A DNA stretch of 64,000 nucleotides from a virus: positions 64,001-128,000 of IMG/VR virus record IMGVR_UViG_3300032285_004073; one strand, written 5' to 3'. This document shows, in pieces, positions 8,399-32,063 of this stretch. The position numbers and the translations under genes were made by a program. Below the pieces are notes generated by a model. That model ran no database searches and had not been told where the DNA came from. It saw only the letters and a program-made list of their open reading frames with translations. Numbering within the stretch: position 1 is the first letter of the stretch; each line of letters opens with the position of its first letter.

Positions 8399-8926
8399 TT
8401 AATTATTAATGATTAAAAAACTTGTGCAAATATCTTCTGTTGTAGTATTTAAAGTTAAATTATTGTTTGATACAAATTCATCTACTGCTCTCATAACAGC
8501 AGTAAACATATTACAATAATCATGACCTGCTATTATACCGTTTTTTTTAACCTTTGTTTTTGCTAAATTTAAATCTATTTTACAGCCTTCGTAAGAATGA
8601 TCACCGTCTATATAAATAAAATCTAGATAATTATCTGGTAAAGAATTTAAAAAAATTTCGCTTTTTCCTTTAAAAAAAGATATTCGGTTTTCTTCTTTGT
8701 ATTTTTCTGTTAAAATTTTATAAGCATCTTCAAGAATGATATGCTTCATATTGCCCCCGTTTTTGTCTCCCGAACACATTGGACCTTCAAATAAATCAAC
8801 AAGATATAATTTTTTTGGATCTGTTGTGGAATATATAATTTCACTAAATGCTCCTTCAAATACTCCTATTTCTGCTCCAATGCCATTTTTTGGTATTAAT
8901 GTTAATAATTCTTCTCTAGTTTTCAT
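8399..8926 (-). CDS. Class I SAM methyltransferase (Methyltransf_24-like)
   Basis: GAEIGVFEG, LVD, DFIYIDGDHSY, GIIAGHDY. Confidence 0.85.
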   Translation of the reverse strand: MKTREELLTLIPKNGIGAEIGVFEGAFSEIIYSTTDPKKLYLVDLFEGPMCSGDKNGGNMKHIILEDAYKILTEKYKEENRISFFKGKSEIFLNSLPDNYLDFIYIDGDHSYEGCKIDLNLAKTKVKKNGIIAGHDYCNMFTAVMRAVDEFVSNNNLTLNTTTEDICTSFLIINN

Positions 8927-9642
8927 AATTCAGATATAATGCTATTTATATAATTTAAATCTTTTCCAGTATAACAAGCACCTAAAAAATGTATTATACT
9001 AGAATCTTTAATTGAAATTTTATTTATACTATCCCACGCACCTCCTATATTTTTTAAATAAACAAAATCTGAAAGTGTTGGTTGTATTAAATTTAAAGAC
9101 GAGAAAAATTCATTAAAAATTGGTTGATCACATACAGCTTTATTTTTTACTGAATTTATGTATTCTAATAAAATATTAAAACTATTTAAATTAATTTTAT
9201 TAAATCCAAAAGTACCTGCATTAAAACCTTTAATAGAAAGATCGTAATTTGTATCACTAAATTTAAAATAGCCAATATTAGTATTAAGGCAGTCTACTTC
9301 TTTAACTCCGTGTATAATATTTTTTTGATTTTCTATACACTCAAAAACAGATTCGAGGGATTTAACTGGTATAGCATCTACATCTAAATAAAGAAAATTT
9401 TCATAATTAGATGCTAAATTTAATTTATTTATAATAAATTTAGCTGTATATTTAAAATCAAAATTATCAACTTCTATAATATGTGTTGGTTTTAAATCAT
9501 TTTCTAAAAACTGAAACCCTTTAGGTACAATACAACATGTATCAATATCTTTGTTATTATTTTTATTAAAACATTTTAAATTTATTTGAAGAATATCTTT
9601 ATATGCATTATCACATATATAGTAAATTAAATTTTTTTTCAT
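8923..9642 (-). CDS. GT-A glycosyltransferase (GT8-like)
   Basis: FLYLDVD (DXD), FNAGTF, DQPIFN, IIHF. Confidence 0.75.
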   Translation of the reverse strand: MKKNLIYYICDNAYKDILQINLKCFNKNNNKDIDTCCIVPKGFQFLENDLKPTHIIEVDNFDFKYTAKFIINKLNLASNYENFLYLDVDAIPVKSLESVFECIENQKNIIHGVKEVDCLNTNIGYFKFSDTNYDLSIKGFNAGTFGFNKINLNSFNILLEYINSVKNKAVCDQPIFNEFFSSLNLIQPTLSDFVYLKNIGGAWDSINKISIKDSSIIHFLGACYTGKDLNYINSIISEL

Positions 9643-10505
9643 AAAGCATTAAATCTAGCATTAATTTTTTTTTCTAAAACATAAAATTTAGACCCTTCTT
9701 CTATTTCATCATCCCATCGATTGTGCCAATGCCATGCGAATGCACCATCAAATAATTCTACAGATTCTTGTTTTTTAAATGGATTTAAATTTGTTCTTTC
9801 AAATCCCCATTCAGAATCAAACCAAATTCCGGGCAATACAGTTAAGTCGTTTTCAGAAACTTTACTATATAGATGATTTCCCCATATGTTTGTATTTTTA
9901 TTTTTAGGAGAAGTAAGAAGGTTTTGTAATAATTCAATAGATAATGAAGATTCTTTATCTAATTTCATTATAGCACCATTCATTGTTATTGAAGGCTCGT
10001 CTGAATTGAATCCAGAAGTACCCCATTGATATAAAAATTCTAAATCAGATAAAGGAGATAGATTTCTCAAAACTAATACATCCATATCTATATAAAATCC
10101 ACCATATTTATATAATACTAAAAGTCTGAACAAATCTCCTTCAAGATAACAAAGATCATCTTGTATTTCTTGAATGTTTATTTTACCTTCTAGTAAAGTA
10201 TTTTTGGTTTCTTCTAACAAATCCCATATTTTAAAATTTACATATGAAGAAACTTCTTTAAAATATTCGTTTTCTCTTAAATCTACATTAGACCAAAGAT
10301 TTATTTCTACATCTCTATGATTTACTATTATAGATTTTAAAACAGCAAGCTGTTTTCTTCCAAAATCTTTTGGTACTCTCCAAAAACAGTGAAAAACCAT
10401 CGGAATTTCTTTTTCCTTTAAAGTTTTAGCATGTGCTAAAGATTTTAAATAGGAATTTCTGTCTGGTCTATAAAGATCTAAATTATTATTTAATATTTTA
10501 ATCAT
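9639..10505 (-). CDS. DXD sugar-binding glycosyltransferase (GT32/Gly_transf_sug-like)
   Basis: DLFRLLVLYKYGGFYIDMDV, AWHWHN. Confidence 0.85.
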   Translation of the reverse strand: MIKILNNNLDLYRPDRNSYLKSLAHAKTLKEKEIPMVFHCFWRVPKDFGRKQLAVLKSIIVNHRDVEINLWSNVDLRENEYFKEVSSYVNFKIWDLLEETKNTLLEGKINIQEIQDDLCYLEGDLFRLLVLYKYGGFYIDMDVLVLRNLSPLSDLEFLYQWGTSGFNSDEPSITMNGAIMKLDKESSLSIELLQNLLTSPKNKNTNIWGNHLYSKVSENDLTVLPGIWFDSEWGFERTNLNPFKKQESVELFDGAFAWHWHNRWDDEIEEGSKFYVLEKKINARFNAL

Positions 10506-11151
10506 TTAATGCTTCGTTTTTAAAAACCATTAAAGTGTTTTTAACATGCGAACCGTTTGGTAAAAACGGATCTAAAACATTTTCAAACTTACCAACCTCT
10601 CCATGTTCATTCTCAAATCTATTATTTCTATAAGCAAAAATAGGTAATAAACTTCTTAAATTTAAAGATAAACTCTCTTCATAGGAAAAATTACTTTTCT
10701 TAAACTTATCGATCCAAAAATCAGCTACTTGGCAATTTACATGATGAAATCCGGGTTGCCCGGGTAATGCATGTGTCATTGCTACTAATTTACAACCTTC
10801 AAAGGTTTTCATAAAATTAGCACTATATTGTTCTTCTACATGTTCAACAAATTCACAACACCAAGCTAGATCATATGTTTTTTCTAAAATATAAGGAGCT
10901 TCCGTATAATCATGAATTTTAATGTGAGATTTTACAGGAGAACTTTCTATAGCATCAATAAAACCTTCTATACCTATACCTTCAATATTTTTATCTATAA
11001 AATATTTTAAAGAATGTCCCGCACCACAACCAACATCTACCATGCTTTTGATTTTAAACTTTTCTATTAAAGCATCCCAAACTTGTGGAGCCCATGTTCC
11101 GATATCATTTGATATTATACATCCTCCTAAATGTGATTTTTCTGTACTCAT
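10498..11151 (-). CDS. Class I SAM methyltransferase
   Basis: HLGG, MVDVGCGAG, YDLAWCCEFVEHV, THALPGQPGFHHVNCQ. Confidence 0.8.
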   Translation of the reverse strand: MSTEKSHLGGCIISNDIGTWAPQVWDALIEKFKIKSMVDVGCGAGHSLKYFIDKNIEGIGIEGFIDAIESSPVKSHIKIHDYTEAPYILEKTYDLAWCCEFVEHVEEQYSANFMKTFEGCKLVAMTHALPGQPGFHHVNCQVADFWIDKFKKSNFSYEESLSLNLRSLLPIFAYRNNRFENEHGEVGKFENVLDPFLPNGSHVKNTLMVFKNEALND

Positions 11152-11927
11152 TGGTTATTTGTTTTTTCTAATATAAAATTTCTATATGTTATTGGCTTTC
11201 CGTCGAGTTGATGTCCACTATTACCTTGCCTTTCATTAACAAATGGTTTAAATTTATTATTAATAAATTCTATTTGTTTATCTGTATCTAAAGAATAGAT
11301 AGGCTCAAAATCTGCATTATAAAAGAATATACTAGGTCTTTCGGGTCTATTAAGATAACCATCATTATAAACATCAATTAGATTTTCCGTTTGCTGCCCC
11401 GGAATTAAAATAACATTATTAAAATCTAATACTTTTATTTTATAATTATATTTTTTAAGTATATCTTCTAGCATTCCTAGTGAATATCCGAAATAATGAC
11501 TACCATCCCAGAAATAATCTTCATCATATTTTACTGAAAATTTAATATTGGCTGGAATCTTTTCGTTTATTTCACTTACTATTACTGAAGGTTTATATTC
11601 ACTTAATATTTTATCTAAAACAAAAAAATCATATCCATCTATATCTAAAGTTAGATAAAACCCGTCTGGAACATTATTTTCTCTTAAAATTTTTAAAATA
11701 TTTTCGGGATTTACTTTTGTATTTAAAACTTTAACTTTAGTATTTTTTAACTTTTCTTCTTGTATAGGAAATTTTGCAGGGTCGCATTCAAACATTAAAC
11801 CTTCCCACCCATTACGAAATAGTAATTCAGATTCTGAAGCTTCTGTATAACATGAAGCGCCTATATCAACAAAGTACTTTACAGGAAGAGTTAAAACACT
11901 ATCTTTAATTTTATCAATGGTTGTCAT
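11148..11927 (-). CDS. FkbM-like methyltransferase
   Basis: FVDIGA, GWEGLMFE, LTLDIDGYD, PSVIVSE. Confidence 0.7.
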   Translation of the reverse strand: MTTIDKIKDSVLTLPVKYFVDIGASCYTEASESELLFRNGWEGLMFECDPAKFPIQEEKLKNTKVKVLNTKVNPENILKILRENNVPDGFYLTLDIDGYDFFVLDKILSEYKPSVIVSEINEKIPANIKFSVKYDEDYFWDGSHYFGYSLGMLEDILKKYNYKIKVLDFNNVILIPGQQTENLIDVYNDGYLNRPERPSIFFYNADFEPIYSLDTDKQIEFINNKFKPFVNERQGNSGHQLDGKPITYRNFILEKTNNQ

Positions 11928-12729
11928 AATTTTTATTTTTAATAAAGTCCGTCCAATAACTTATTTTAAGTTTTTCAAAATTCCACTCTTTTTGAATAAT
12001 TTCTGTATATTTTTCTTCCAAAAAATTTTTTTCTATTTGATTCCAATTTGTTATGAATAAAATTGGTAAATCGGTAAAAAGATGATGAGCATTTTCATAC
12101 CTTACGATAGGAATACTACCCATATAAAGTGTTTCCCATAGTCGGTGTGTATCAATACCATTTCCCTTTGGACAAAACACAAATTTTGATTTTTTTATAT
12201 CCTTTAAATATTTTTTTCTACCTTCTAAAGAACAGTCCACCGTTCCTTTATTTACCCACGATTCGTTTGAGAATTTTTCAAAAATTAAATTTCTTTCGGA
12301 ATGATTTGTTGATGTATTAATGTTTAAATAAGATAACTCAATTTTCTGTAAACTACTATCATTAAAAACATCAAACATAATATTTGTATTTCCATAAATC
12401 GGATGAAGATTGGATTCGTTAGAATTATTGGTTATACCAAGTGGTATTCCAAAACAATTATCTTCTTTATTATCTTTATTTATACAAAAAATTTTTTTAA
12501 ATTTTTTTGCTATATTAGTAGTTATGGGATAATCTGAATGCCCAACTACACAAATATTATCTACTCTAGTAGGATGAATACTACCTCTCCAATCAAAAAC
12601 TCCAGTATAAAAATAATCAGTTTTTATATAACATATATTATTTTCTAAACAAAATTTTAAATATTTATCTGTTGTAATAATATCAGATTCATCATATGTA
12701 AAATTTTCTATTTTCATACTAATATCCAA
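11914..12729 (-). CDS. Exostosin-like (GT47) glycosyltransferase
   Basis: SKFVFCPKGNGIDTHRLWETLYMGSIPIV. Confidence 0.85.
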   Translation of the reverse strand: MDISMKIENFTYDESDIITTDKYLKFCLENNICYIKTDYFYTGVFDWRGSIHPTRVDNICVVGHSDYPITTNIAKKFKKIFCINKDNKEDNCFGIPLGITNNSNESNLHPIYGNTNIMFDVFNDSSLQKIELSYLNINTSTNHSERNLIFEKFSNESWVNKGTVDCSLEGRKKYLKDIKKSKFVFCPKGNGIDTHRLWETLYMGSIPIVRYENAHHLFTDLPILFITNWNQIEKNFLEEKYTEIIQKEWNFEKLKISYWTDFIKNKNYDNH

Positions 12730-13388
12730 TTTAATTTAATTTTATGATTAGAATCAGGTCTTGCGGGTATATTATGATAATATACTTTTATATCTATATC
12801 TAGGCTATCTACAAAATCTTTGAAAGAAGAAGAAATACAATGAATTTCTTTTGCATTTTCTATTAATTTTCTATAATCAAACATTATATTTGTATGTTTT
12901 TCTACAAAAATTTTTTTTATTTTATCATCTATTAATTTGTATTTGATTCTATCGATACCGTCACTCCCTTTATTATGTATTAATACATAATCTTCTTTAT
13001 TAGGATTTAATTTATTAAAAAGATCTTCTTCAGATTCTTTGTTTCTTTTTATATAGAAAGATTCCCATCTTTTATTAAAATCTATACCAGCTTCTATATA
13101 AAAAAGTTGATCCCATGTTATATTTTCTGGAGGAGACTTAAATCCAACTTTAATACATGGGATATTATTGTTTATAATAATTTGATCAGCTTGCGAATCA
13201 TCATTAACAATAAAAAAAGATAAATTTTTAACATCTTCATACATAAACTTTACTGATGGTAAATTATGTTTTTTAACAATTAATTTGTAGAATTCAAATT
13301 GATTTTTTTTTATAATTTCACGAACTAGTCCATTACATATTATATGATCTCCTAATCCCAAATGGTGATATATAATAAGTTCTTTCAT
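12714..13388 (-). CDS. Putative GT-B-type glycosyltransferase
   Basis: N-terminal HHLGLGDHII motif (GLGD as in GT9-like enzymes), YVLIH, IENAKEIHCISSSF; position in the glycan operon. Confidence 0.5.
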   Translation of the reverse strand: MKELIIYHHLGLGDHIICNGLVREIIKKNQFEFYKLIVKKHNLPSVKFMYEDVKNLSFFIVNDDSQADQIIINNNIPCIKVGFKSPPENITWDQLFYIEAGIDFNKRWESFYIKRNKESEEDLFNKLNPNKEDYVLIHNKGSDGIDRIKYKLIDDKIKKIFVEKHTNIMFDYRKLIENAKEIHCISSSFKDFVDSLDIDIKVYYHNIPARPDSNHKIKLNWILV

Positions 13389-14269
13389 TTTATTAAAAAA
13401 TTTTTTAATGTTCTAGTTGCTTTCCATCCAAATATACAACACGTTTTTGATATATCTGCACAACTATGCTTTAGCTCTCCGATTTTTCCTTCTGTATATT
13501 CAATTTTATCAGAAATCCAAGAAGCTAATTGATTGATTGATATATCATTACCAGTGCCTACATTATAACAATCTCCATAAGAACTTAATTCTGTAGAAGA
13601 TGCTTTTATATTGATGTCCACGACATCATTTACATCAACAAAATCTCGTGTTTGAGTACCATCTCCATAAATCAATAAAGGTTTATCTTGGTTTTTATTA
13701 TTTAAAAAATTAACAAGCACTGAAGAGTATGGACTAATAGAATTATTTTTTCCATATACATTAAAATATCTCAGTGAGATTGTTTCTATCCCGTAAAGAT
13801 TATAATAAATCTTGCAAAGATTTTCTCCATATAATTTAGACACAGAATATAAATTTAAAGGATCAACTTCATCAAATTCTCTGTATACATATTTGTTATT
13901 TGATTGTTTATATACTGCTGAAGTAGAAGAAAATATAAATTTTTTTACATCCATTCTTCTACAAGCTTCCAAAACATTTAATGTAATATTTGTATTATTT
14001 AAACCACTTTCTCTTGGAAATTTATTACAATAATCTATTGATATGTCAGCTGCTAGATGGAAACACCTATCTACTGCATAAAAGCAGCTGAGTATCTCAT
14101 CGAAATTATTTAAATCATAATTATAATATATAGCACCATCTACAATATGATTATTTTTATTATTAGAGCTGTTATTATCGATAACGATTACGGTATCTCC
14201 AAGATCAACTAATCTTTTTACCAAATTACTACCAATAAATCCTTTACCGCCAGTAACTATACTTTTCAT
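13385..14269 (-). CDS. NAD-dependent nucleotide-sugar epimerase/dehydratase (extended SDR)
   Basis: VTGGKGFIG, HLAA, SSTSAVY, YSVSK (YxxxK), LRYFNVYG. Confidence 0.92.
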   Translation of the reverse strand: MKSIVTGGKGFIGSNLVKRLVDLGDTVIVIDNNSSNNKNNHIVDGAIYYNYDLNNFDEILSCFYAVDRCFHLAADISIDYCNKFPRESGLNNTNITLNVLEACRRMDVKKFIFSSTSAVYKQSNNKYVYREFDEVDPLNLYSVSKLYGENLCKIYYNLYGIETISLRYFNVYGKNNSISPYSSVLVNFLNNKNQDKPLLIYGDGTQTRDFVDVNDVVDINIKASSTELSSYGDCYNVGTGNDISINQLASWISDKIEYTEGKIGELKHSCADISKTCCIFGWKATRTLKNFLIK

Positions 14270-14926
14270 TTATTGTTTTAAAAAAACCATATCCCACTCT
14301 ATAGTTTTTATGGGTTTATATCCTTTATTACCTAGGAATTTTACTATTTCGTTTGAATTATAATTTTTTTCTATTAAAAAACAATATATATTTGTTTTTT
14401 CAAAATTTATAGAATTTAAAACTTGAAGTTCTGCACCTTCTACATCAATTGATACTAAATCAATATTTAATAAATTGTATTTTTCTAATAAAGTTTGTAA
14501 TTTAAATGTTTTTATTTTTATTTTTTTGTGTGTAGAATATAAATCGTGTCCTACTGGATAATCTTTATATTGATTTAATTCTCTATTAATTCTTTCTTTA
14601 TGTTCTTGTGGATAAAATTCAATTATTCCACTTAATACATTACAAGGACCTCCAATACTTAAAAATTCCACTTCTCTTTCTTCGTTAGAGATAGCACAAT
14701 TTTCTTTAAATGATAAAGGACGAGGATGTAGATCCATTTTATTAAATTCAATAGGATTTGGTTCTATTAATAAACCAGACCAATCCCTTTCTTTTTCAAA
14801 AAACCACGTATTAGATGCTCCAAATCCGTCCAATGCACCTACTTCTACAAAAGTTCCTTTTGTTTTTTTATTAAAAATTTGTTCATCTAAAATTATATCT
14901 TGATTTATTTGTGATTTACTATTCAT
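14270..14926 (-). CDS. FkbM-family methyltransferase
   Basis: FVEVGALDG, WSGLLIEPNP, IDLVSIDVEGAE. Confidence 0.88.
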   Translation of the reverse strand: MNSKSQINQDIILDEQIFNKKTKGTFVEVGALDGFGASNTWFFEKERDWSGLLIEPNPIEFNKMDLHPRPLSFKENCAISNEEREVEFLSIGGPCNVLSGIIEFYPQEHKERINRELNQYKDYPVGHDLYSTHKKIKIKTFKLQTLLEKYNLLNIDLVSIDVEGAELQVLNSINFEKTNIYCFLIEKNYNSNEIVKFLGNKGYKPIKTIEWDMVFLKQ

Positions 14927-14938
14927 GTTTATTATTGT

Positions 14939-15619
14939 TTAATAAATGTTTAAAGATTGTATATATTCATCTGCTGGCCCAAAGAATTTATCATTTTCAT
15001 CTATAGGTTGACCAACAAACCAAATTTTATCTCTTTCTACATTTCTTGGAGTCGGAAAATCACAATCATGGGTAATATTATCATATTGTGCATATTTTTC
15101 GTATATATATTGCAAGAAATATTGATCCATACCATGCATATCACTGTTATGTTGGATATAATGTTTTATATGGTCTTCTATATCCGGAACTATACCACCT
15201 TTAGAACCAAACATACCACCTAAAATAGGATAATCTGGTGTTCTGTGATATTTTGGATGGTCTTTCATTATATGAAAAGACTTCCCAGATTCTAACCATT
15301 GATCCACTGCTTCTTTTTCTCTTATGCTTAATCTACAGTCTGTATCTCTAGACATAAAATAACTGATATCCTTTTCTCCAAATGGTAAAAACCTATACAT
15401 CATAGAGTAGTGACTACCTTTTCTTTTACATAAAATAACTTCTGTATTGGGAAATTTTTCTAATTCTGGAATTAAATCAAAACATTCTTTAAAAATATAA
15501 AATCTGCATGTCCAATCTGGAAATAATTTTAACGCTAATTCTGCATTTTTTAATGCTCCTATGCTATACATAGGATGTGTTCCATAAACACAAAAGGTTA
15601 TTATTTTTTTAGTTTCCAT
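14939..15619 (-). CDS. Putative GT-A glycosyltransferase
   Basis: YSIGALKNA, MYRFLP, SRDTD (DXD), FHIMKDHP, ILGGMFG, DQYFL. Confidence 0.55.
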   Translation of the reverse strand: METKKIITFCVYGTHPMYSIGALKNAELALKLFPDWTCRFYIFKECFDLIPELEKFPNTEVILCKRKGSHYSMMYRFLPFGEKDISYFMSRDTDCRLSIREKEAVDQWLESGKSFHIMKDHPKYHRTPDYPILGGMFGSKGGIVPDIEDHIKHYIQHNSDMHGMDQYFLQYIYEKYAQYDNITHDCDFPTPRNVERDKIWFVGQPIDENDKFFGPADEYIQSLNIY

Positions 15620-16923: not shown

Positions 16924-16941
16924 ATTATAAAAATAATTTTA

Positions 16942-17484
16942 TTAATTTGTTGACGGATAATAATAATATATCGGACCTTTTATAAAAACTTCTGTTTTAA
17001 GTTTGCCTTTTAATCTTTGAGAAAAATCTTTATCTTCTTGCCAATATTTGTCTGGAAACTTTGCATCTAAAGCTATCTCTCTTTTAATAGGATTTAAATG
17101 ATTAGGACATCTATAATAAATTTCATTTTCTTCATACCAATCTGTATACTGCAAAGAGTGAATAAATTTCTTTGGTCCTATATCTTTTAAAGTTATTATG
17201 CCTTCTATTCCTACACAATCCGGACTTTGTTGAATAGCATTCAGTATCCCAAAAACATAAAAAGGGGAAATCATATCATCATCATCAATAAAGACTACAT
17301 AATCACCCTTTGCTGCTTCTAAAAGTTCATTTCTTTTAGCTCCTACACTCTTTTCACCGTTATCACAATTAGCTAACATTTCTATGTGTGAATTGGATTG
17401 AGCTTTTAAGACTCTTGCTAGATTCTCAAATACAGGTTTTCTTGATTCTAATGTTGCAGTTAATATAGAAAGTTTTTTACTCAT
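16942..17484 (-). CDS. GT2 glycosyltransferase
   Basis: LSILTAT, GAKRNELLEAAKGDYVVFIDDDD. Confidence 0.85.
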   Translation of the reverse strand: MSKKLSILTATLESRKPVFENLARVLKAQSNSHIEMLANCDNGEKSVGAKRNELLEAAKGDYVVFIDDDDMISPFYVFGILNAIQQSPDCVGIEGIITLKDIGPKKFIHSLQYTDWYEENEIYYRCPNHLNPIKREIALDAKFPDKYWQEDKDFSQRLKGKLKTEVFIKGPIYYYYPSTN

Positions 17485-17485
17485 T

Positions 17486-24052: not shown

Positions 24053-24064
24053 AAATATAAGCAA

Positions 24065-24754: not shown

Positions 24755-24758
24755 TAAA

Positions 24759-25773: not shown

Positions 25774-25861
25774 TTGAATTCAAGAAGTAATTAGAGAGAA
25801 GACTCGGTACCTCTTCTATAAAAAAACTTACTCTTTATACCCAGAATCATAAGTATAAAAA

Positions 25862-26341
25862 ATGTATTATCCTAATAACTCGCTTAGTGATGAATTAACA
25901 AATAATAAAGATTCTTTTACTATAAAAGCTAAGCCTTTTTTAAAAAATGCTACACCATTAACGATTAATTCTTCGTATAATAATGTATCATCTTGCAATT
26001 TGACGGTGTATGGGAAAAATTTCTTTTCATTAAATAATGTATATATTAGTGCATCTAATAGTAATATGTTAGATAATGTTACATTATTTAACCCTTTTTC
26101 ATCTTTTAATAATTTATACCCAAATAATCCCCCTTTTCATGCTCAGGTAATTCCATCTTTTACACAGATAGATAATATAATACAATTTTATCTACCTAAT
26201 ATACATCATACTGGCTTTTTAGATATCATTATACAAAATGACGCTGGATATGCATTGTTAACAAGAGATTGTAAAAATTTAAGCTTAAGTTCTAATAACC
26301 CCTTTTTATTACTTTGTTTATCTGGTATACGAATCATTTAA
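25862..26341 (+). CDS. Asn-rich putative virion protein, IPT/TIG Ig-like
   Basis: LTVYGKNF and DIIIQNDAG patterns typical of IPT/TIG domains; TAAGTA 6 nt upstream. Confidence 0.5.
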   Translation: MYYPNNSLSDELTNNKDSFTIKAKPFLKNATPLTINSSYNNVSSCNLTVYGKNFFSLNNVYISASNSNMLDNVTLFNPFSSFNNLYPNNPPFHAQVIPSFTQIDNIIQFYLPNIHHTGFLDIIIQNDAGYALLTRDCKNLSLSSNNPFLLLCLSGIRII

Positions 26342-26343
26342 AG

Positions 26344-26371
26344 GTGATTTATTTTTAAATTGTATTAAGTT
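26344..26371 (+). promoter_or_regulatory. Sigma70-like promoter GTGATT-N16-TAAGTT heading the second glycan arm
   Basis: 6 nt upstream of ATG 26378. Confidence 0.45.
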
Positions 26372-26377
26372 AGATTA

Positions 26378-27331
26378 ATGTCTGACAAATACGTAATTTT
26401 TCATATTGATGGTGGTTGTGGTAAAAATATTGTTGCTACATCTATAATAAAATCGATTAAACAAGCTTATCCGGACCATAAACTTATAGTAGTTACTGCT
26501 TGGCCTGAAGTTTTTGTTCATAATCCTAATATTTTTAGGGTTTATAAATTTGGAATGATTCCTTATTTTTATGATGATTATATAAAAGATAAAGAATCAG
26601 TTATACTGAGAACCGAACCATATCATACAGGTGCTGTATTATATGGAACTAAATCCTTGGCAGAAGCTTGGTGTGATGTTTTTAGTATAGATGGTGTAAA
26701 AATTCCTTTTATAAATAACAAACCAGAAATTTATCTTTCAGAAAGAGAATTATTATTTGCTCAAAACAATTTACAAAAGGACGGACCTGTTTTATTGGTG
26801 CAATCAAGTGGTGGAGCTGAACAGCAAAGCCATCCTTATTCCTGGTCAAGGGATTTGCCGCCTCAATTTGCAGCTGAAATAGTAAATGATATTAAAGATA
26901 ATTTTTCTAAAATACTTCATATCAGAAGAGATAATCAACCCGAGATACCAGGTACTATTAAAATAACGGATAATTTTAGAAATCTTTTTTGTTATATAGC
27001 TTTATCTGATAAATTTCTCTGCATAGATTCTTTTACTCAACATGCAGCAGCAGCTTTTAATAAAAAAGCCACAGTAGGATGGATATCTAATTCACCCACG
27101 GTATTTGGATATGATATTCATGATAATATTTTAGCTACAGGAACAGAATCTTTCCGCCACCGTATTGATTCGTATTTAGAACAAGATGATTGGACCGGAG
27201 GAAGATTTCATGAATGTCCTTATGATAATATTAATAATCTCTTTGATAAAGAAAAGTTTATTGAATCTATCTTAGGATCTAAGAATGAATTATTGTTTGA
27301 TGCAAATCCAAATTCAACATTTAATTTTTAA
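26378..27331 (+). CDS. GT9 (heptosyltransferase)-like glycosyltransferase
   Basis: IDGGCGKNIV, SIKQAYPDHKLIV, VFVHNP, IDSFTQHAAAAFNKKA. Confidence 0.7.
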   Translation: MSDKYVIFHIDGGCGKNIVATSIIKSIKQAYPDHKLIVVTAWPEVFVHNPNIFRVYKFGMIPYFYDDYIKDKESVILRTEPYHTGAVLYGTKSLAEAWCDVFSIDGVKIPFINNKPEIYLSERELLFAQNNLQKDGPVLLVQSSGGAEQQSHPYSWSRDLPPQFAAEIVNDIKDNFSKILHIRRDNQPEIPGTIKITDNFRNLFCYIALSDKFLCIDSFTQHAAAAFNKKATVGWISNSPTVFGYDIHDNILATGTESFRHRIDSYLEQDDWTGGRFHECPYDNINNLFDKEKFIESILGSKNELLFDANPNSTFNF

Positions 27332-27337
27332 TCTTAT

Positions 27338-28015
27338 ATGATATCATATTTAGGAAATGATAAAGATCCTAATCATCTTTATCAGGAAGATTTGGGTAAA
27401 CAATTATATAATGAAATAATAACTTTAGATTCATATTATTTAAGAGAATTTTTTAAAAATGATAATAGAGAAATTAATACTATTATAGATATAGGAGCAA
27501 ATATAGGTTACTATACATTATTAGCATCTATTTTATATCCCTATGCTAATAAAATCTTACTAGAACCGAATCCGGAAAATGTAAAAGTATTAAATGCTAA
27601 TTTCAAAGATTTCCAAAATATAAACATTATACCGAAAGCTTTAGGTGACAAGTCCAAGGTCAGTATGAAATTTGATCAAAGATGGAGTGGTTCTGATAGC
27701 GTTGTCAACGACATAAACGGTAATATAGATACTATAGAATTTAAAGATATTATACCACGTAATATTGGAAATTTTATATTAAAAGTAGATTGTGAAGGTG
27801 GTGAAAAATTTTTATTAAAGTCGGATCCTAGTTTTTTTAAAAACTGCGTTTATTTTACTTGTGAATTTCATGAAAATGAATATAATAATATTACAGAATG
27901 GGAGCACTGGTTAAAAAATACCTTTGCGTTCAATTACAATGTAATCAAAAAACCGCTTGGTAGGGATATGAATAATAATTTATATCTTTATTACGCTTAC
28001 AAAAAAACAAAATGA
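27338..28015 (+). CDS. FkbM-family methyltransferase
   Basis: IIDIGANIGY, LEPNPEN, LKVDCEGGE, CEFH. Confidence 0.88.
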   Translation: MISYLGNDKDPNHLYQEDLGKQLYNEIITLDSYYLREFFKNDNREINTIIDIGANIGYYTLLASILYPYANKILLEPNPENVKVLNANFKDFQNINIIPKALGDKSKVSMKFDQRWSGSDSVVNDINGNIDTIEFKDIIPRNIGNFILKVDCEGGEKFLLKSDPSFFKNCVYFTCEFHENEYNNITEWEHWLKNTFAFNYNVIKKPLGRDMNNNLYLYYAYKKTK

Positions 28016-28836
28016 AAAACATATTTTTTAATTCCTCAATGCCTCGTAGTATGAGTACATTATTTCAATGTATTCTCAATCAACATCCAGAAATTCAAGC
28101 AACACAAACCGATCCAGTTTTAGAATATCTGTATGGGGCTAGAATAAATTATACAGATACCCCAGAAGCTAAGGCCATGGATAGAGACCTTGCTTTAAGG
28201 ACATGGAGAGGGTTTTGTCTCGGTGGACTAAATGGATATGCGGAAGCCTATACAGATAAGCCCAATCTTTGTATTAAAACTCGAGGAGGCACTATTCACT
28301 ATAAATGGTTTGAAGCCTTTTTGCCTTATAAACCAAAAATGATTTGTTTAGTAAGGAATTTAAAAAGTATTTTTGCATCTATGGAAAAGATCTATAGAAG
28401 AAATCAAGAATTCCATCAATCAATTCAAAATCATTCTGAAATGAGAGGTACCAACACAGCAAAAAGAATTGATACCTGGATTGCAGGACCACCTCTTGGA
28501 CTTGCCTTGGAAAGACTTCAACAGACCTTTTTAGAAGGTATTAATAAAGATGTTCATTATATAAGAGCTGAAGATTTAACAAGCTATCCACAAAAAGAAA
28601 TGGATAAGGTTTATCAATATTTGGGTATTGAGTCATTTAAACATGACTTTGATAATGTTGAGCAGACCGTTAAAGAGGATGATTCAGTTTATGGTTTAAC
28701 ACCAGATTTACATACTATTAGACAAAAGGTTCAACCTCTAACACCAGATTATAATACTATCTTAGGTAAGCAAGTATGTGATTGGATTGATAATAACTTT
28801 GCCTGGTATCAGCAAGGATTTGGCTATACAAAATAA
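28012..28836 (+). CDS. Sulfotransferase
   Basis: 5'-PSB-like SSMPRSMSTL, 3'-PB-like LVRNLKSIFAS, IRAEDL...P..EMDKVYQYLG. Confidence 0.8.
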   Translation: MKNIFFNSSMPRSMSTLFQCILNQHPEIQATQTDPVLEYLYGARINYTDTPEAKAMDRDLALRTWRGFCLGGLNGYAEAYTDKPNLCIKTRGGTIHYKWFEAFLPYKPKMICLVRNLKSIFASMEKIYRRNQEFHQSIQNHSEMRGTNTAKRIDTWIAGPPLGLALERLQQTFLEGINKDVHYIRAEDLTSYPQKEMDKVYQYLGIESFKHDFDNVEQTVKEDDSVYGLTPDLHTIRQKVQPLTPDYNTILGKQVCDWIDNNFAWYQQGFGYTK

Positions 28837-28842
28837 TGAGAT

Positions 28843-29511
28843 ATGGTAAAGGTGTTTCATTTTGGTTCTTGTAGAACAGTTTTAGCACCTAAATTTAATA
28901 CTGATGAATATTATTTTGATAAGAATTACGACTTAACACACTCTACTAGAGAGATATTTACCTATTTGGATTTATATGATGGAATCCAAACAATGGATGA
29001 TATTCTCTTTCCGGAATGCTTAATGTATAATCCAGAAAAGTTTTCTATTCCTGGATATGCAAAAAGGTTAAAAGAGTCTGATGTTGTAATGATAGAAATC
29101 GCTACAGTTAAGCTTGTAGAGTATAAAGGTGTACACTATCAACAAAATAGAGTTAATCAGAATCCAAATGATTTTGTTAAGAACTATAGACAAACACGAG
29201 AAGAACTTATTGATGATTTAGAATTATTAAAATATAGAATTAGAAAACCTATTATATTCTTTGGTCATACAGATTTAAATTTTTATGATGTTCCTAACAT
29301 CTACGGTCATGTAGCCGAGAGACAAAGAATGGATGAAATTATAAGGAACAATACTGAACACCATATTATTATAGGGGACTTATTTGCAGGAAAGGACTAC
29401 AAAGAAGTCTGTGAAACTAATTTAGAAAAAACAGATACACATCATATAACAGATAAATCAAAAGAAGTTATATATAATGCTGTAGTTCAAAAAATTAAAA
29501 GTATATTATGA
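28843..29511 (+). CDS. Hypothetical protein in glycan arm (possible SGNH-like fold)
   Basis: N-terminal FGSCRT and C-terminal DTHH. Confidence 0.4.
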   Translation: MVKVFHFGSCRTVLAPKFNTDEYYFDKNYDLTHSTREIFTYLDLYDGIQTMDDILFPECLMYNPEKFSIPGYAKRLKESDVVMIEIATVKLVEYKGVHYQQNRVNQNPNDFVKNYRQTREELIDDLELLKYRIRKPIIFFGHTDLNFYDVPNIYGHVAERQRMDEIIRNNTEHHIIIGDLFAGKDYKEVCETNLEKTDTHHITDKSKEVIYNAVVQKIKSIL

Positions 29512-30275
29512 AAAATTTATCTATATGTACAGTTATAAAAAATGAAGCTCTTTATTTAGAGGAATGGATAGCTTATCATCGTCATATAGGGTTCGATCAT
29601 TTTTATATATACAATAATAATAGTAATGATAATCCATATCCTATATTTCAAAAATATAGAGACATTGTAACATTTAAAGAATGGGATTTAAATGATTGGC
29701 AACAAAAATTAGCTTATAAAGATTATTGTGAAAATTATAGCAACGATTCTAAATGGACTGCATTTATAGATGTAGATGAGTTTATTGTTTACAAAGGTAA
29801 TAAAGGATTACTTCAACATTTAATTGAGGAGGAAGTAGATGTAGCTTATGCTCACTGGAAAATATTTGGAACTAATGGCCATGTTAAAAGACCAAATGGT
29901 TTAGTTATTCAAAATTATACAGCTACTCACTCTGTGTGTCCCAACCCACTATGGAAAACGATATGTCGTTCTAGTCTTATAGATTCTGATCTTATAGATT
30001 CTCCGCACAGATTTAAATATAAAACTGATAAAATTAAATATCATTTCGATAAAGACATTTTAAATTTGTATCATTATATGCTAAAAAGTGAAGAAGATTT
30101 AAAATATAGATATACAAAGGGTGATGTATGGAACGCTAAAAATGCTAAAATAAGATCTTCGTATGTTGATCAAAATGTTAAATCATCTTTGAACAAATAT
30201 AACAATACAGATATAATAGATGATTATATGTTAAAGTATGTACCTTTGATAAAGAATAGAATAGCTGCTAAATAA
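29508..30275 (+). CDS. GT92/GT2-like glycosyltransferase
   Basis: IKNEALYLEEWIAYH, FDHFYIYNN, WTAFIDVDEF, HY..KSEED. Confidence 0.82.
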   Translation: MKNLSICTVIKNEALYLEEWIAYHRHIGFDHFYIYNNNSNDNPYPIFQKYRDIVTFKEWDLNDWQQKLAYKDYCENYSNDSKWTAFIDVDEFIVYKGNKGLLQHLIEEEVDVAYAHWKIFGTNGHVKRPNGLVIQNYTATHSVCPNPLWKTICRSSLIDSDLIDSPHRFKYKTDKIKYHFDKDILNLYHYMLKSEEDLKYRYTKGDVWNAKNAKIRSSYVDQNVKSSLNKYNNTDIIDDYMLKYVPLIKNRIAAK

Positions 30276-30279
30276 TGTA

Positions 30280-31152
30280 TTGAAAACAAAACCTATATAT
30301 TTTTTAATAGACCCTAGATTTGGTTCTTCATACTTACGAGGGGAGCAAATATGTAATGCTTTAAAAGCTAAAGGTTATAATTGTAAATTAGCAACCAGAA
30401 TTGATCCCAATACTAAAAGATCTATTATATTCATTATTAAAAATATGATGGGTACAAGATCTTGGCTTACACCTAAATTCCATAAAAGCAATTTTGTTAT
30501 ATGGGATGTGGTTGATTATGTTTATGATGGAGACACACATGGTTTATTTTTAGAGAAGTACGATTATGCAGATTTGCTTATATTTCATAATAAAACATTT
30601 CCTTTATTTCTTGAAGAAGAATATAATGTTAAAAAAGATTATGCTGTAATACCTCACCATTGGGATAAAAGATTAAAGATATTTGATGTACCAAAAGATA
30701 AATTTAGATTTGGCTATATTGGAGATTTTAATTCGAGTATATTTTTAGAATTAGTAGACAGAAAGTACAACACAGGCTCACCAAATATCAATTGTAGGAC
30801 TAGTAATTTCTTAGCTCATTTTGAATTATATAATTGTCATTTTGATATAAAAGACCCAGACTGTTTAAAGTTTAAAAGTTGTTCTTCTATGAAGTTATCA
30901 ACAGCAGCAGCTTTAGATTGTGGAATTATATTGAATAAAACTTGGTCCAATATTGAATTATTACCAGAAGACTCTATTTTCTATTGTGATGAAATATCTG
31001 AGAAAGGTATTAAGAATAAAATAAAAGAGATAAAAAGTATATATGGTACAACAGAATGGGATCTAGCAATGAAACCTATTCAAAAAATTAAAAAGAGAAC
31101 TCATATAGACAATATTATAAAACTTTACGAAAATATAATCAATGAATATTAA
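30280..31152 (+). CDS. Putative GT-B glycosyltransferase (TTG start)
   Basis: SSYLRGEQI, IWDVVD, VIPHH, GYIG, KLSTAAAL. Confidence 0.55.
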   Translation: MKTKPIYFLIDPRFGSSYLRGEQICNALKAKGYNCKLATRIDPNTKRSIIFIIKNMMGTRSWLTPKFHKSNFVIWDVVDYVYDGDTHGLFLEKYDYADLLIFHNKTFPLFLEEEYNVKKDYAVIPHHWDKRLKIFDVPKDKFRFGYIGDFNSSIFLELVDRKYNTGSPNINCRTSNFLAHFELYNCHFDIKDPDCLKFKSCSSMKLSTAAALDCGIILNKTWSNIELLPEDSIFYCDEISEKGIKNKIKEIKSIYGTTEWDLAMKPIQKIKKRTHIDNIIKLYENIINEY

Positions 31153-31798
31153 AGTAGTTACATCCATTGTAGGTAATGGAAGGGATAGATTAACAGATAA
31201 AATTATTAAGGAAGATAATGTTGAATATGTTGCTTACACTGAACAACATTCAGATTTGTGGACAGTTAAACCTCCCTGTAACATCTTTAACGAAAATAAA
31301 AAGAATGCTAAGATACATAAGATATTAATTCATCAGTACGAACCTTGTGATGTATCTATTTGGATGGATGGAAATGTAGATATTTTAAAACCCCCTACTC
31401 AAGTAGTAAATGAATTACTAGGCGATGCGGATATAGCAATTTGTAGACACCCTAAACGAACTAATGAATTAGAAGAAGGCGCTCATATCATAAAAGAAAA
31501 AGTAGAACGAGAGGGTATAGTTTTAAAACAACTTAAGAAGTATAAAGAAGATAAACAATATATGCTTTATACTCCAGACTTACTTTGTTTTGCTACAGTT
31601 CTAATAAGAAGACATACCAAAGAAGTTGAAGCTTTTAACAATCATTGGTGGTCTGAAATAACAACAGGGTCATTCAGAGATCAAATATCACTTCCTTATG
31701 TTATTAGCAAACATAAGTTAAAGTATAATATTTTTAGCAATAATGAACTTAATGAAAACTTTTTAAGAGTTCATCACGAACCTATTAGATATTCTTAA
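31142..31798 (+). CDS. DUF616/TOD1-MUCI70-like glycosyltransferase
   Basis: KILIH, SIWMDGN, HPKR, WWSEI, RDQISLPY. Confidence 0.8.
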   Translation: MNIKVVTSIVGNGRDRLTDKIIKEDNVEYVAYTEQHSDLWTVKPPCNIFNENKKNAKIHKILIHQYEPCDVSIWMDGNVDILKPPTQVVNELLGDADIAICRHPKRTNELEEGAHIIKEKVEREGIVLKQLKKYKEDKQYMLYTPDLLCFATVLIRRHTKEVEAFNNHWWSEITTGSFRDQISLPYVISKHKLKYNIFSNNELNENFLRVHHEPIRYS

Positions 31799-32054: not shown

Positions 32055-32063
32055 ATTTTTTAA

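Follow-up and report, generated by a model that had tools for sequence, protein, structure and literature searches.

Two gene arms for glycan building and tailoring in an uncultured, distant T4-like phage: a tentative case for virion glycosylation

Related systems of two kinds have been described. In the mycobacteriophages Che8 and Corndog, capsid and tail-tube proteins are glycosylated (PMC12363180, PMC11256854). In pelagimyophages and cyanomyophages, glycosyltransferase (GT)-rich hypervariable regions lie beside the tail fibres, and the published reading of the pelagimyophage regions is O-chain modification (PMC7029224); a cyanomyovirus carrying 13 GTs has also been published (PMC12801897). 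T4-like phages rich in GTs are already known from this literature, and an earlier note on the DNA studied here overstated its novelty.

The window analysed here, 64,000 nucleotides in all, covers bases 64,001-128,000 of a 176.8-kb IMG/VR record. The source is an uncultured, distant relative of T4. That it is T4-like had been proposed, and it carries gp23, gp20, gp46, gp47, a gp55-like sigma factor, gp32, gp41, gp43, UvsW, UvsX, and UvsY. On re-inspection, the ORF layout was the same as first described. Arm 1 (8399-20512) occupies the gp47-gp46 junction with 15 co-directional minus-strand ORFs, abutting or overlapping; arm 2 (26378-31798) has seven plus-strand ORFs and converges on fibre genes; together they make up 17.5 kb. 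This enzyme clustering is far beyond chance, and both arms are dedicated gene sets for glycan building and tailoring. A survey of part of the remaining genome found only three glycan-related genes outside the arms: an APS kinase (E 2e-45), a UDP-galactopyranose mutase (Glf, E 1.7e-57), and a weak Fringe-like ORF. GT2 matches were confined to the arms. The features, by position in the window, are:

6526..8352, minus: gp46-like SMC/Rad50 ATPase, bounding arm 1 on its downstream side (Pfam SMC_N 1.7e-13)
8399..8926, minus: class I SAM methyltransferase, variable part (Pfam Methyltransf_24 2.9e-14; weak TylF)
8923..9642, minus: GT8-family glycosyltransferase, variable part (Pfam Glyco_transf_8 2.3e-8)
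9639..10505, minus: GT32-type glycosyltransferase, DXD sugar-binding region, variable part (Pfam Gly_transf_sug 3.2e-11)
10498..11151, minus: probable class I SAM methyltransferase (Methyltransf_23 2.1e-5, below cut-off; VDVGCGAG motif I)
11148..11927, minus: possible FkbM-like methyltransferase, weak (Methyltransf_21 E 0.0019, 18.8 bits, below cut-off)
11914..12729, minus: GT47 (exostosin)/RXYLT1-like glycosyltransferase (Pfam Exostosin_GT47 and RXYLT1_C, 5.7e-9 and 6.4e-9)
12714..13388, minus: conserved protein of about 222 aa, no family assignment
13385..14269, minus: SDR NDP-sugar epimerase/dehydratase, GalE/WbpP/UXS-like (Pfam Epimerase 6e-52)
14270..14926, minus: FkbM-family methyltransferase (Pfam 5.7e-17)
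14939..15619, minus: GT-A fold glycosyltransferase of a family without a Pfam model (AF2 pLDDT 94.7 and Foldseek)
15601..16923, minus: fusion of a GT domain (N-half, clade core) and an FkbM methyltransferase (C-half)
16942..17484, minus: small GT2-like protein, 180 aa, core gene (Pfam GT2 7.5e-7)
17486..18961, minus: two-domain core enzyme, N-terminal GT2-like and C-terminal GT7
18937..19767, minus: GT2-like paralogue with intact EDD motif, core gene (phrog_2456 1.4e-23)
19745..20512, minus: GT2-like paralogue without DXD motif, adjoining gp47 (weak PHROG match 6e-6; alignment)
20509..21561, minus: gp47-like Mre11 phosphoesterase, bounding arm 1 on its upstream side (Pfam Metallophos; 168 related viral loci)
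25862..26341, plus: small Asn/Ser-rich protein preceding arm 2 (family search)
26378..27331, plus: GT9-like GT-B glycosyltransferase, paired with the sulfotransferase across the clade (AF2 pLDDT 64; 305 homologues)
27338..28015, plus: FkbM methyltransferase in arm 2 (Pfam 1.4e-7)
28012..28836, plus: sulfotransferase with PAPS-binding motifs, PAPS-loop (Pfam Sulfotransfer_3 6.7e-10)
28843..29511, plus: TviD N-terminal/SGNH/GSCFA-like protein (ESM Atlas feature score 0.95, structure TM 0.79-0.82)
29508..30275, plus: GT92/GT2_4 glycosyltransferase (Pfam Glyco_tranf_2_4 and GT92, 1.1e-19 and 1.6e-15)
30280..31152, plus: GT-B (GT1/GT4-like) glycosyltransferase, lead only (ESM Atlas look-alikes 0.95-0.98)
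31142..31798, plus: TOD1/MUCI70 glycosyltransferase-like domain, 'DUF616-like' in the earlier note (Pfam 5.8e-19)
31785..36851, minus: fibre-like late operon, convergent to arm 2 (89, 553, 562, 330, and 112 aa)

Most of the ORFs match GT or methyltransferase families or folds. Profile or fold evidence supports 12 of the 14 GT-like ORFs first counted. The ORF at 30280, which matched nothing in Pfam or PHROG, ranks as a lead because language-model look-alikes are its sole support, and the one at 12714 has no GT assignment. The latter's family is large and metagenomic, and its HxGLGDH..C motif is invariant; a Pfam domain was found in none of 1065 homologues and there was no PDB match, and hhalign against the GT9-like family of 26378 gave a faint collinear resemblance (E 0.01, probability 4%). 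Four of the six proposed methyltransferase domains are firm (8399, 14270, the C-half of 15601, and 27338), and those at 10498 and 11148, the second with a VDIGAS motif at its N-terminus, are weaker. The sulfotransferase and the SDR epimerase were both correctly recognized; the epimerase falls under all NCBIfam equivalog cut-offs, with Pal and UDP-glucose 4-epimerases as its best PDB matches.

Fold comparison was informative for two further enzymes. The GT-A protein at 14939 retrieved glycogenin, Skp1 AgtA, and PBCV-1 A64R from the PDB with Foldseek, and TM values of 0.72-0.75 against BFVD. It has a conserved RDTD motif and 66 homologues, and its relatives are from uncultured phages and giant viruses. 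For the GT9-like protein, Foldseek matched 3tov (3e-9), and VIA Z scores were 15.9 for 3tov (GT9), 14.2 for WaaF, and 12.8 for TibC, where generic GT-B folds score about 10. The GT9-like fold takes in the protein heptosyltransferase TibC (PMC4358343).

The synteny survey of 70 related gp47 loci placed a GT immediately downstream of gp47 in 65. Five genes next to gp47 form the clade-wide core: the DXD-less paralogue at 19745, the GT2-like 18937, the GT2-GT7 enzyme 17486, the small GT 16942, and the GT of 15601, which in this phage is fused to the FkbM methyltransferase (phrog_14945 1.7e-12 for the N-half, Methyltransf_21 1.1e-10 for the C-half). The 17486 product (63-73% identity to relatives) combines a GT2-like domain (phrog_2456, 8e-28) with a beta-1,4-galactosyltransferase-like GT7 domain (Glyco_transf_7C 2e-19; beta4GalT7 1e-24). 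The EDD motif of 18937 is retained in all 57 relatives; in 19745, xSN stands in its place, as in 41 of 41 orthologues, and the product is probably a non-catalytic subunit. The non-core island genes swap between relatives but stay within glycan enzymes: a sample of 104 such ORFs drawn from 17 relatives falls into glycan families in a top-25 Pfam tally, amino-sugar genes (DegT and FdtA) occur in the relatives' islands, and one related locus (L026) holds an 87% identical copy of the GT32-type ORF. In distant relatives, a lone small GT-like ORF occupies the gp47-gp46 interval. A fixed core with swapping glycan genes is the pattern expected of a diversifying surface structure.

By sequence comparison, two core domains are homologous to proteins of the Che8/Corndog glycosyltransferase cassette. 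Over 188 aa, ORF 16942 and the N-terminal half of Che8 gp108 are 30% identical (BLASTP E 1.4e-23), and Corndog gp37 (5e-7) and Che8 gp109 (2e-4) both resemble the GT7 domain of 17486. The same domain logic, a GT fused to a methyltransferase, is seen in 15601 and in Che8 gp108. No homologue of the third Che8/Corndog GT (gp110/gp38, reported essential) was detectable in this phage.

Arm 2 does abut Ser/Thr/Asn-rich fibre genes: the convergent operon encodes fibre-like proteins rich in Gly, Asn, Ser, and Thr, its ORF 35516 matches tail-fibre PHROGs, TAAATA-type motifs lie upstream, and the portal gene comes next (36890-38755, phrog_213). These fibre-like proteins are candidate glycan acceptors. 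The GT9-like/sulfotransferase pair adjoins convergent fibre-like ORFs in three different genome arrangements. The sulfotransferase is 72-84% identical in relatives, and the pair is conserved more than gp47: in one relative (G008), where it sits within the head/portal module, the sulfotransferase is 76% identical and gp47 51%. The FkbM gene at 27338 splits the pair in this phage only, relatives having no counterpart at the site. The small protein at 25862 is possibly a virion protein; family matches were sought and none found, and its homologues lie beside the pair in two loci (L009 and L010) and near head genes in G008.

Neither gaps nor terminators interrupt arm 1, whose sequence suggests read-through, together with uvsW, gp55, and gp47, from a sigma70-like promoter ahead of uvsY. 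The arm looks like part of an early/middle replication-recombination transcription unit. Early/middle timing is typical of DNA- or host-directed functions and less so of late virion genes. The gp46-like gene has its own sigma70-like promoter at 8389-8362 (11/12 matches in a promoter scan of upstream sequence).

Our best reading, held tentatively and a little short of an even chance, is that virion proteins are glycosylated in the cytoplasm. All being predicted soluble, the enzymes would act in the cytoplasm of the infected cell, using host nucleotide sugars, phage-made UDP-galactofuranose (Glf), an epimerised or dehydrated sugar from the SDR enzyme, SAM, and PAPS, whose supply the phage APS kinase would raise. 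The core beside gp47 would lay down a conserved oligosaccharide, with the DXD-less paralogue as a likely non-catalytic partner. The strain-variable GT8, GT32, GT47, and GT-A enzymes and the methyltransferases would then extend and O-methylate it, and arm 2, built round the GT9-like protein and the sulfotransferase, would add sulfate and further sugars, with an acyl group as a possible third addition. The glycan would go onto at least one virion protein, the adjacent fibres being first candidates, before or during assembly, giving a particle with a strain-specific, methylated, and sulfated coat. Gene content, conservation, homologies, and the lack of export and ThyA-type genes are observed; we infer the donors, the sequence of reactions and their chemistry, and, most of all, the acceptor. 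The glycan would be methylated and probably sulfated, and the proposal of an O-methylated, possibly sulfated product stays plausible from the FkbM domains, the PAPS motifs, and the APS kinase; the 'large' and 'branched' parts of that description were not borne out.

The earlier note had named virion and host envelope as possible acceptors and, from the lack of export genes, favoured virion proteins. A virion acceptor is favoured by the Che8/Corndog homology, the linkage of the pair to fibre genes, and the lack of export or lipid-carrier genes and of a DNA-acceptor route. Against it stand the early/middle look of arm 1 and host lipid-linked intermediates, on which soluble GTs could act as well. 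Also against it are the missing gp110/gp38 homologue, the O-chain precedent, the 82% completeness of the record, and the finding of neither a mucin-like Ser/Thr tract nor general N-x-S/T enrichment in structural proteins. The serious rival, though rather unlikely, is host-envelope remodelling: soluble enzymes would act at the inner membrane face on undecaprenyl-linked or lipid A-core intermediates, and host flippase, ligase, and exporter would display a changed O-chain or capsule at the surface of the infected cell, for superinfection exclusion or to spare progeny from loss on cell debris. It is the published reading for GT-rich pelagimyophage and cyanomyophage regions (PMC7029224, PMC12801897), and it fits the transcription of arm 1 with replication genes, the GT8, GT9-like, GT2, and FkbM families typical of LPS/O-antigen loci, and the O-antigen-typical DegT and FdtA. 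However, as first noted for flippase, polymerase, and exporter, the entire 177-kb record, itself 82% complete, showed no initiating polyprenyl-phosphate transferase, flippase, polymerase, ligase, ABC exporter, or NTP_transferase; a hydropathy scan gave no multi-pass membrane protein, none exceeding four candidate transmembrane segments in either arm or elsewhere in the record. Host export is still conceivable despite the missing exporter, because peripheral GTs of LPS/capsule pathways likewise lack transmembrane segments. A clade-wide core with a pseudo-GT would be odd if it must suit many host glycans, and the company of fibre, head, and portal genes and the Che8/Corndog homology also speak against the host envelope.

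A free glycoconjugate is improbable: a methylated or sulfated sugar chain in soluble form (oligo- or polysaccharide), or else a glycolipid, made inside the cell as a metabolic sink, decoy, signal, or lysis-time modulator. Possible analogues are cytoplasmic polymethylated polysaccharides and Nod-factor-like sulfated and methylated oligosaccharides. Nod-factor tailoring likewise joins a sulfotransferase, an FkbM methyltransferase, and GTs, and a weak NoeE N-terminal match, the solubility of all enzymes, and the missing carrier and exporter agree with it. However, enzymes that would make a primer or aglycone were not seen, the fibre/head linkage and the Che8/Corndog homology are left unexplained, and we know of no phage precedent. 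Highly improbable is DNA hypermodification, in which some or all core GTs near gp47 would glycosylate a modified base and block host nucleases, on the model of the T4 alpha- and beta-glucosyltransferases and newly described multi-sugar DNA glycan clusters. The T4 map reads 46, 47, a-gt, 55, with the alpha-glucosyltransferase gene in the equivalent neighbourhood; a weak match to phrog_842 (beta-glucosyl-HMC-alpha-glucosyltransferase, 1e-5), the single small GT-like gene of distant relatives, and the early look of arm 1 point the same way. Glycans of one to three sugars can be attached to DNA by phage GTs, and the published routes begin with a hydroxylated pyrimidine made via a ThyA homologue, or with a C5-methyltransferase and a TET-type dioxygenase (bioRxiv 10.1101/2023.12.21.572611; PMC13326640). 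Against this, the ThyA/dCMP-hydroxymethylase family is absent from the record and from four relatives at least 99% complete, a C5-methyltransferase is absent from the record, and Tet_JBP was not found, although a positive control in one of its searches also gave no match. The 7-deazaguanine genes of the record suggest that the DNA is modified by another route, and about 20 tailoring enzymes, including the sulfotransferase, FkbM, and SGNH-like proteins, far exceed those of any known DNA glycan.

Within arm 2, the ORF at 28843 had no name in the earlier note. Its model-based likenesses make it a lead, as a putative glycan O-acyl transferase or esterase.

At the enzyme level, the view that the two arms assemble and tailor a glycan is well supported. 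The layout described in the earlier note was exact: 15 co-directional ORFs, abutting or overlapping, lie on the minus strand (8399-20512, arm 1) and seven on the plus strand (26378-31798, arm 2). Its reading of these ORFs as glycosyltransferases (GTs), methyltransferases, and related enzymes held for most of them in Pfam/PHROG profile checks, and five were left without a family. In family searches of the genome, GT2 and epimerase matches were confined to the arms.

Enzymes assigned in the two arms (ORFs named by window start coordinate; four methyltransferases are firm and two weaker)
8399, minus strand: methyltransferase, firm
8923, minus strand: GT8, Pfam/PHROG profile
9639, minus strand: GT32 type, Pfam/PHROG profile
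10498, minus strand: methyltransferase, weaker, with a clear SAM motif I
11148, minus strand: methyltransferase, weaker
11914, minus strand: GT47/RXYLT1, Pfam/PHROG profile
13385, minus strand: SDR sugar epimerase/dehydratase
14270, minus strand: methyltransferase, firm
15601, minus strand: GT and FkbM fusion, Pfam/PHROG profile; the C-half is a firm methyltransferase
16942, minus strand: small GT2, Pfam/PHROG profile
17486, minus strand: GT2 and GT7 fusion; the GT7 half matches animal beta4GalT7 and beta4GalT1 (1e-24)
18937 and 19745, minus strand: two more GT2-like paralogues, Pfam/PHROG profile
27338, plus strand: methyltransferase, firm
29508, plus strand: GT92/GT2_4, Pfam/PHROG profile
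31142, plus strand: TOD1/MUCI70, Pfam/PHROG profile

Each of the five ORFs without a family (14939, 26378, 28843, 30280, and 12714) was taken further. The model of 14939 (pLDDT 94.7) presented a GT-A fold resembling glycogenin, Skp1 galactosyltransferase, and PBCV-1 A64R, and its closest viral relatives were uncultured phages and giant viruses. For 28843, the resemblance was to the TviD N-terminal region and the SGNH fold, and 30280 displayed only language-model look-alikes among GT1/GT4-type enzymes. Searches of Pfam, PHROG, NCBIfam, and the PDB (phmmer and profile) retrieved nothing for 12714, whose metagenomic family has over 1000 members; its hhalign comparison to the GT9-like family of 26378 gave a likeness that is at most suggestive.

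The earlier note had also stated that no flippase, polymerase, or exporter was present. This holds for the DNA in hand, since a crude hydropathy scan found no multi-pass membrane protein among the 212 ORFs of the record (82% complete): the maximum was four candidate transmembrane segments, none of them in the arms. The arms share with O-antigen and capsule clusters a typical combination of several GTs and nucleotide-sugar modifying enzymes (the epimerase and UDP-galactopyranose mutase, Glf), and the same scan found no hallmark set of such clusters, that is, an initiating polyprenyl-phosphate sugar transferase with a flippase and a polymerase or an ABC exporter.

Arm 1 occupies the gp47-gp46 junction. 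We scanned viral contigs and retrieved 168 loci related by gp47 and 46 related by the GT2-GT7 fusion. The synteny survey proposed in the earlier note showed a shared core of genes beside a variable remainder. Of the 70 loci in which gp47 is followed by 4 kb or more of sequence, 65 have a GT2-like gene directly after it. The distance between gp47 and gp46 forms a graded series, from 9-15 bp to ~0.8 kb (one small GT-like gene), 4.3 kb, and up to the 12.1 kb of this phage, the largest seen among related loci. The smallest multi-gene island, in a complete relative of 225,756 bp, presents the core only: three GT2-like paralogues (one fused to GT7), a GT equivalent to the N-half of 15601, and a small GT like 16942.

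Within this core, the gp47-adjacent paralogue (19745) lacks the EDD metal-binding motif and carries xSN instead in all 41 orthologues, whereas its two sister paralogues keep EDD in every relative. From this pattern, 19745 is a conserved partner that is probably non-catalytic. Outside the core, island content varies even between close relatives, yet it is glycan-related: among 104 island ORFs from 17 relatives, the best 25 of the Pfam tally were GT2, FkbM, GT1, GT47, GT7, other methyltransferases, epimerases/dehydratases, DegT, and FdtA. An assembly artefact as the origin of the islands is ruled out, because those of the relatives are fully coding on a single strand and come from many independent contigs.

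For arm 2, only two genes are conserved, the GT9-like 26378 and the sulfotransferase 28012. Their conservation is striking: five relatives have a sulfotransferase 72-84% identical to 28012, and in one of the five, a complete record, gp47 is only 51% identical. In three genome arrangements (this window and the relatives G003 and G008), the pair adjoins convergent large fibre-like ORFs rich in Gly/Asn/Ser/Thr, and in G008 it sits within the head/portal module. Elsewhere among the relatives, more tailoring genes come after the pair: a second sulfotransferase and GT2_4, or two DUF1501 proteins and a methyltransferase. The latter arrangement is seen in the relative's contig L024, where the two DUF1501 genes (189-1550 and 2367-3635, E 1e-117 to 1e-135) and the methyltransferase come directly after the pair; DUF1501 is a member of the sulfatase/alkaline-phosphatase superfamily.

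The content of the arm 2 and fibre region differs among relatives, and the whole block (25862-39189) is missing at the same site in two of them, L092 and L025. Thus, arm 2 and the fibres behave like the host recognition cluster of pelagimyophages, as described in the available text of PMC7029224: a hypervariable region of a T4-like aquatic phage with tail-fibre and GT genes. Two structural proteins of this block carry repeats. The fibre-like protein at 32072-33733 (553 aa) presents Gly/Asn/Ser repeats of ~14 residues (YSNIAGG type), many Cys, a weak match to an ice-binding beta-roll, and a segment 35% identical to part of the 1191-aa fibre of G008. At the C-terminus of the portal gp20 (36890-38755), an acidic Gly-rich stretch precedes tandem Thr-Pro-Glu repeats of ~50 residues, a tail unusual for T4-type portals.

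The sulfotransferase assignment comes from matches to Pfam Sulfotransfer_3 and Sulfotransfer_1 and from recognisable PAPS-binding motifs (5'-PSB and 3'-PB), namely a PRSMST loop and an RN..S motif; a sequence search of the PDB gave no match. Its partner 26378 belongs to a family with 305 metagenomic homologues, and its model, of modest confidence (pLDDT 64), found only GT9-type structures as best matches, with VIA Z of 15.9 (3tov), 14.2 (WaaF), 13.0 (WaaC), and 12.8 (TibC) against ~10 for other GT-B enzymes. The model points to a GT-B fold closest to GT9 structures, and by sequence 26378 falls outside GT9, with no Pfam hit and 15.7 bits to NCBIfam heptosyltransferase III (cut-off 170).

Outside the arms, the genome carries genes for APS kinase (G000:C1:10330-10872, E 2e-45), the enzyme whose product is PAPS, the sulfate donor, and for Glf (C1:15092-16102, E 1.7e-57). 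No ATP sulfurylase, CysD, or nucleotidyltransferase was found in family searches of the genome. APS kinase was present in two of six records with the sulfotransferase and in none of six without it, a sample too small for a test. Both donor genes are far from the arms; the mutase gene lies within a cluster of eight tRNA genes, and a weak Fringe-like ORF (possibly GT31, C1:9268-10050) adjoins the APS kinase gene.

Virion proteins are, tentatively, the likeliest receivers of this glycan. The reading draws on the homology of two core domains to GTs of mycobacteriophage cassettes, on the tie of the pair to fibre genes, and on the GT9-like fold class, which takes in protein heptosyltransferases acting on repeat-rich adhesins (PMC4358343). 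All the enzymes are predicted to be soluble and would act without lipid-carrier or export machinery, and a conserved core with variable decoration would be the architecture expected of a surface structure under diversifying selection.

Several results speak against a virion target. Arm 1 runs without internal gaps or terminators, and its transcription apparently starts at a sigma70-like promoter before uvsY and takes in uvsW, gp55, and gp47 as well; this apparent promoter and the co-transcription with replication genes suggest early or middle expression. No homologue of the GT reported as essential in mycobacteriophages (Che8 gp110/Corndog gp38) was found by BLASTP in the whole genome. Finally, acceptor markers (enrichment of N-x-S/T sequons and Ser/Thr-rich tracts) gave no general signal in structural proteins. 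One of two outliers among the tested ORFs of at least 150 aa was the gp15-like tail sheath stabiliser/completion protein (48669-49367), with 11 N-x-S/T sequons where 3.8 were expected (z 4.2), an excess that may be chance.

Regarding late transcription, the T4 late promoter TATAAATA was not enriched (17 matches vs. 23 expected). The TAAATA hexamer is about two-fold depleted in the whole window (117 vs. 214 expected) and located 10-20 nt upstream of many structural genes, as would be expected if it were the core of a late promoter and avoided elsewhere. With no clear TAAATA at the head of arm 2 and no enrichment of TATAAATA, a late promoter could not be confirmed for this arm. In the variable half of arm 1, the hexamer is not depleted on the sense strand and GC content is lowest (0.24-0.27), and both features hint at a recent acquisition of this half.

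Other receivers can be weighed against virion proteins. Remodelling of the host O-chain or capsule via host export is a serious but less probable rival; it is the published guess for related phages (PMC7029224 and PMC12801897, whose available text favours host O-chain or DNA targets). A free glycan or small-molecule product is improbable. DNA glycosylation appears highly improbable, despite GT genes near gp47 in the early region, as for the T4 alpha/beta-glucosyltransferases. The ThyA family makes hmC, hmU, and 5hoC precursors. This family (PF00303) is absent from the record and from four relatives at least 99% complete that carry the GT core, with positive controls; the C5-methyltransferase PF00145 is absent from the record, and TET-type PF12851 (Tet_JBP) gave no match, though control genomes likewise gave none. 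No known way to make the hydroxylated base that these systems glycosylate was found here, the genome carries a different DNA-modification route (7-deazaguanine genes), and the tailoring enzymes are far more than any DNA glycan needs. Phage clusters for DNA glycan hypermodification share with the arms the recruitment of GTs from LPS-type families (10.1101/2023.12.21.572611; PMC13326640).

Virion proteins as receivers have their closest precedent in mycobacteriophages. Che8 and Corndog glycosylate capsid and tail-tube proteins, and the Che8 gp110/Corndog gp38 GT is the one reported essential, according to the available text of PMC12363180 and PMC11256854. Both their cassettes (Che8 gp108-110 and Corndog gp35-38) and the arms combine soluble phage GTs with a methyltransferase, without an exporter. 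The N-half of Che8 gp108 is 30% identical to 16942 over 188 aa (BLASTP, E 1.4e-23), and the GT7 domain of 17486 matches Corndog gp37 (E 5e-7) and Che8 gp109, a 'galactosyl transferase' (E 2e-4), at a remote ~22% identity. Che8 gp108 is itself a GT and methyltransferase fusion, as is 15601, and the Corndog cassette adjoins a capsid gene, as arm 2 adjoins structural genes. However, those cassettes have three or four genes rather than ~22, and belong to siphoviruses of Actinobacteria rather than a T4-like myovirus; arm 1 lies amid replication and recombination genes; and sulfotransferase, APS kinase, Glf, GT9-like, GT8, GT32, GT47, and GT92 are unannotated in the Che8 and Corndog stretches compared. 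As counterparts of Che8 gp110, 14939 and the N-half of 15601 were rejected, with no relation by hhalign or BLASTP.

Among aquatic T4-like phages, pelagimyophages and cyanomyophages carry a host recognition cluster and 'LPS-related' genes (PMC7029224), and cyanomyophage S-SCSM2R has 13 GTs (PMC12801897). In the available text of both papers, these phages resemble ours in their many GTs and sugar epimerases and in hypervariable regions partly beside tail-fibre genes. They are distant relatives only (gp23 here is ~35% identical to cyanophage gp23), and the gp47-gp46 site, the five-gene core with its pseudo-GT, and the sulfotransferase/APS-kinase pair were not met in that text. The GT2-GT7 fusion protein occurs in no isolate of the phage collection.

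PBCV-1 and giant viruses glycosylate their capsids autonomously and bear methylated glycans on virion proteins. They share with the arms virus-encoded cytoplasmic GT-A enzymes and methyltransferase domains. The model of 14939 matches A64R-type GT-A folds, and its closest viral structural relatives include giant-virus proteins; we take A64R to be the PBCV-1 GT behind the PDB matches 2p6w/2p73. TviD_N-like proteins (compare 28843) are commonest in giant viruses. These viruses infect eukaryotes, the likeness is one of shared folds and families rather than orthology, and the glycan here is predicted from genes.

TibC and Aah are bacterial autotransporter heptosyltransferases acting on beta-helical adhesins (PMC4358343). 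The model of 26378 aligns to the TibC catalytic domain over 251 residues (Z 12.8), and the gene adjoins genes for fibre-like proteins full of repeats, one of them the Gly/Asn/Ser repeat protein 32072. However, LPS-type GT9 enzymes fit 26378 better (Z 14-16), the TibC alignment begins at residue 96 and leaves the N-terminal beta-barrel uncovered, and no ADP-heptose genes were seen in this genome.

GT-rich aquatic T4-like phages (PMC7029224; PMC12801897, available text), four core GTs in 'moraphages' (PMC12619734), and, in the text available, virion glycosylation in mycobacteriophages are already published, and sulfotransferases are already listed among viral auxiliary genes. In the literature as available, we found no published account of the gp47-gp46 site with graded island sizes, of a core that the whole clade shares and that includes a conserved pseudo-GT, of sequence homology to the Che8/Corndog enzymes, or of a link between fibre genes and the sulfotransferase, GT9-like gene, and APS kinase. 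To our knowledge, no sulfated glycan has been reported on a phage before.

For the many GTs in aquatic T4-like phages, the roles published so far (host O-chain, DNA) amount to guesses. Our results provide a concrete set to test: the five-gene core (~4.3 kb in the minimal relative), the fibre-tied pair, and the phage APS kinase. A broader, doubtful extension of the virion-protein reading is that, throughout a clade of uncultured aquatic T4-like phages, the particles bear a glycan coat made by a conserved core (gp47-side GTs and a dedicated pseudo-GT partner) and bearing strain-specific O-methylated, sulfated, and possibly acylated decorations, with fibres as the first candidate acceptors. If true, it would be the first sulfated glycan reported on a phage, made with a PAPS step that the phage itself provides, and a viral counterpart of bacterial serotypes. 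With the virion as the target, lake and ocean phage particles would carry variable sulfated and methylated glycans, with a bearing on adsorption, aggregation, grazing, and recognition, and the enzymes, among them the GT2-GT7 and GT-FkbM fusions, would offer soluble biocatalysts for glycan tailoring. With the host envelope or DNA as the target, the arms would still be a new, large example of those strategies.

The phage itself is a distant T4-like one. The window covers bases 64,001-128,000 of a linear IMG/VR record (176,807 bp, 82% complete by CheckV estimate), with a GC content of 31.6%. Compared with 50,697 phage records, the whole region had no megablast match, and the gp23 capsid protein (52716-54194) reached only ~35% identity to its best matches, the cyanomyophages; no close isolate is among these records. 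A T4-type gene set surrounds the arms: gp43 polymerase, gp46 (SMC_N), a QueE-like radical-SAM gene, ThyX, UvsX, QueD, gp41, gp32, FolE2, gp47, a gp55-like sigma factor, UvsW, UvsY, portal gp20, and a tail-fibre-related protein. Outside the window, profile annotation covered about half of the remaining genome. Glf was tried as a guide to the host and gave none; it is only ~37% identical to proteins of very diverse bacteria. The IMG sample numbers give a faint impression of a freshwater source.

Some minor observations concern DNA metabolism. The ORF at 326-1204 had no Pfam match. Precursor genes for 7-deazaguanine are spread over the replication module (FolE2, L004:6273-7178; QueD/PTPS, L004:11519-12079; QueE-like Fer4_12, window 5737-6495) and suggest deazaguanine-modified DNA. 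A short adenylosuccinate-synthetase homologue (332 aa, G000:C1:17381-18379, L001:17381-18376, Pfam E 9e-80) lies near the tRNA cluster and three calcineurin-like phosphoesterases; in length and surroundings it is reminiscent of the PurZ of 2-aminoadenine (Z-base) phages, for which it is a candidate. Finally, homing-endonuclease-type genes (phrog_447/7363-like, LAGLIDADG and HNH) are located at window 24320-24754, L001:6574-7410, and L002:2666-3253, and the first of them adjoins uvsY and is 72-92% conserved across relatives.
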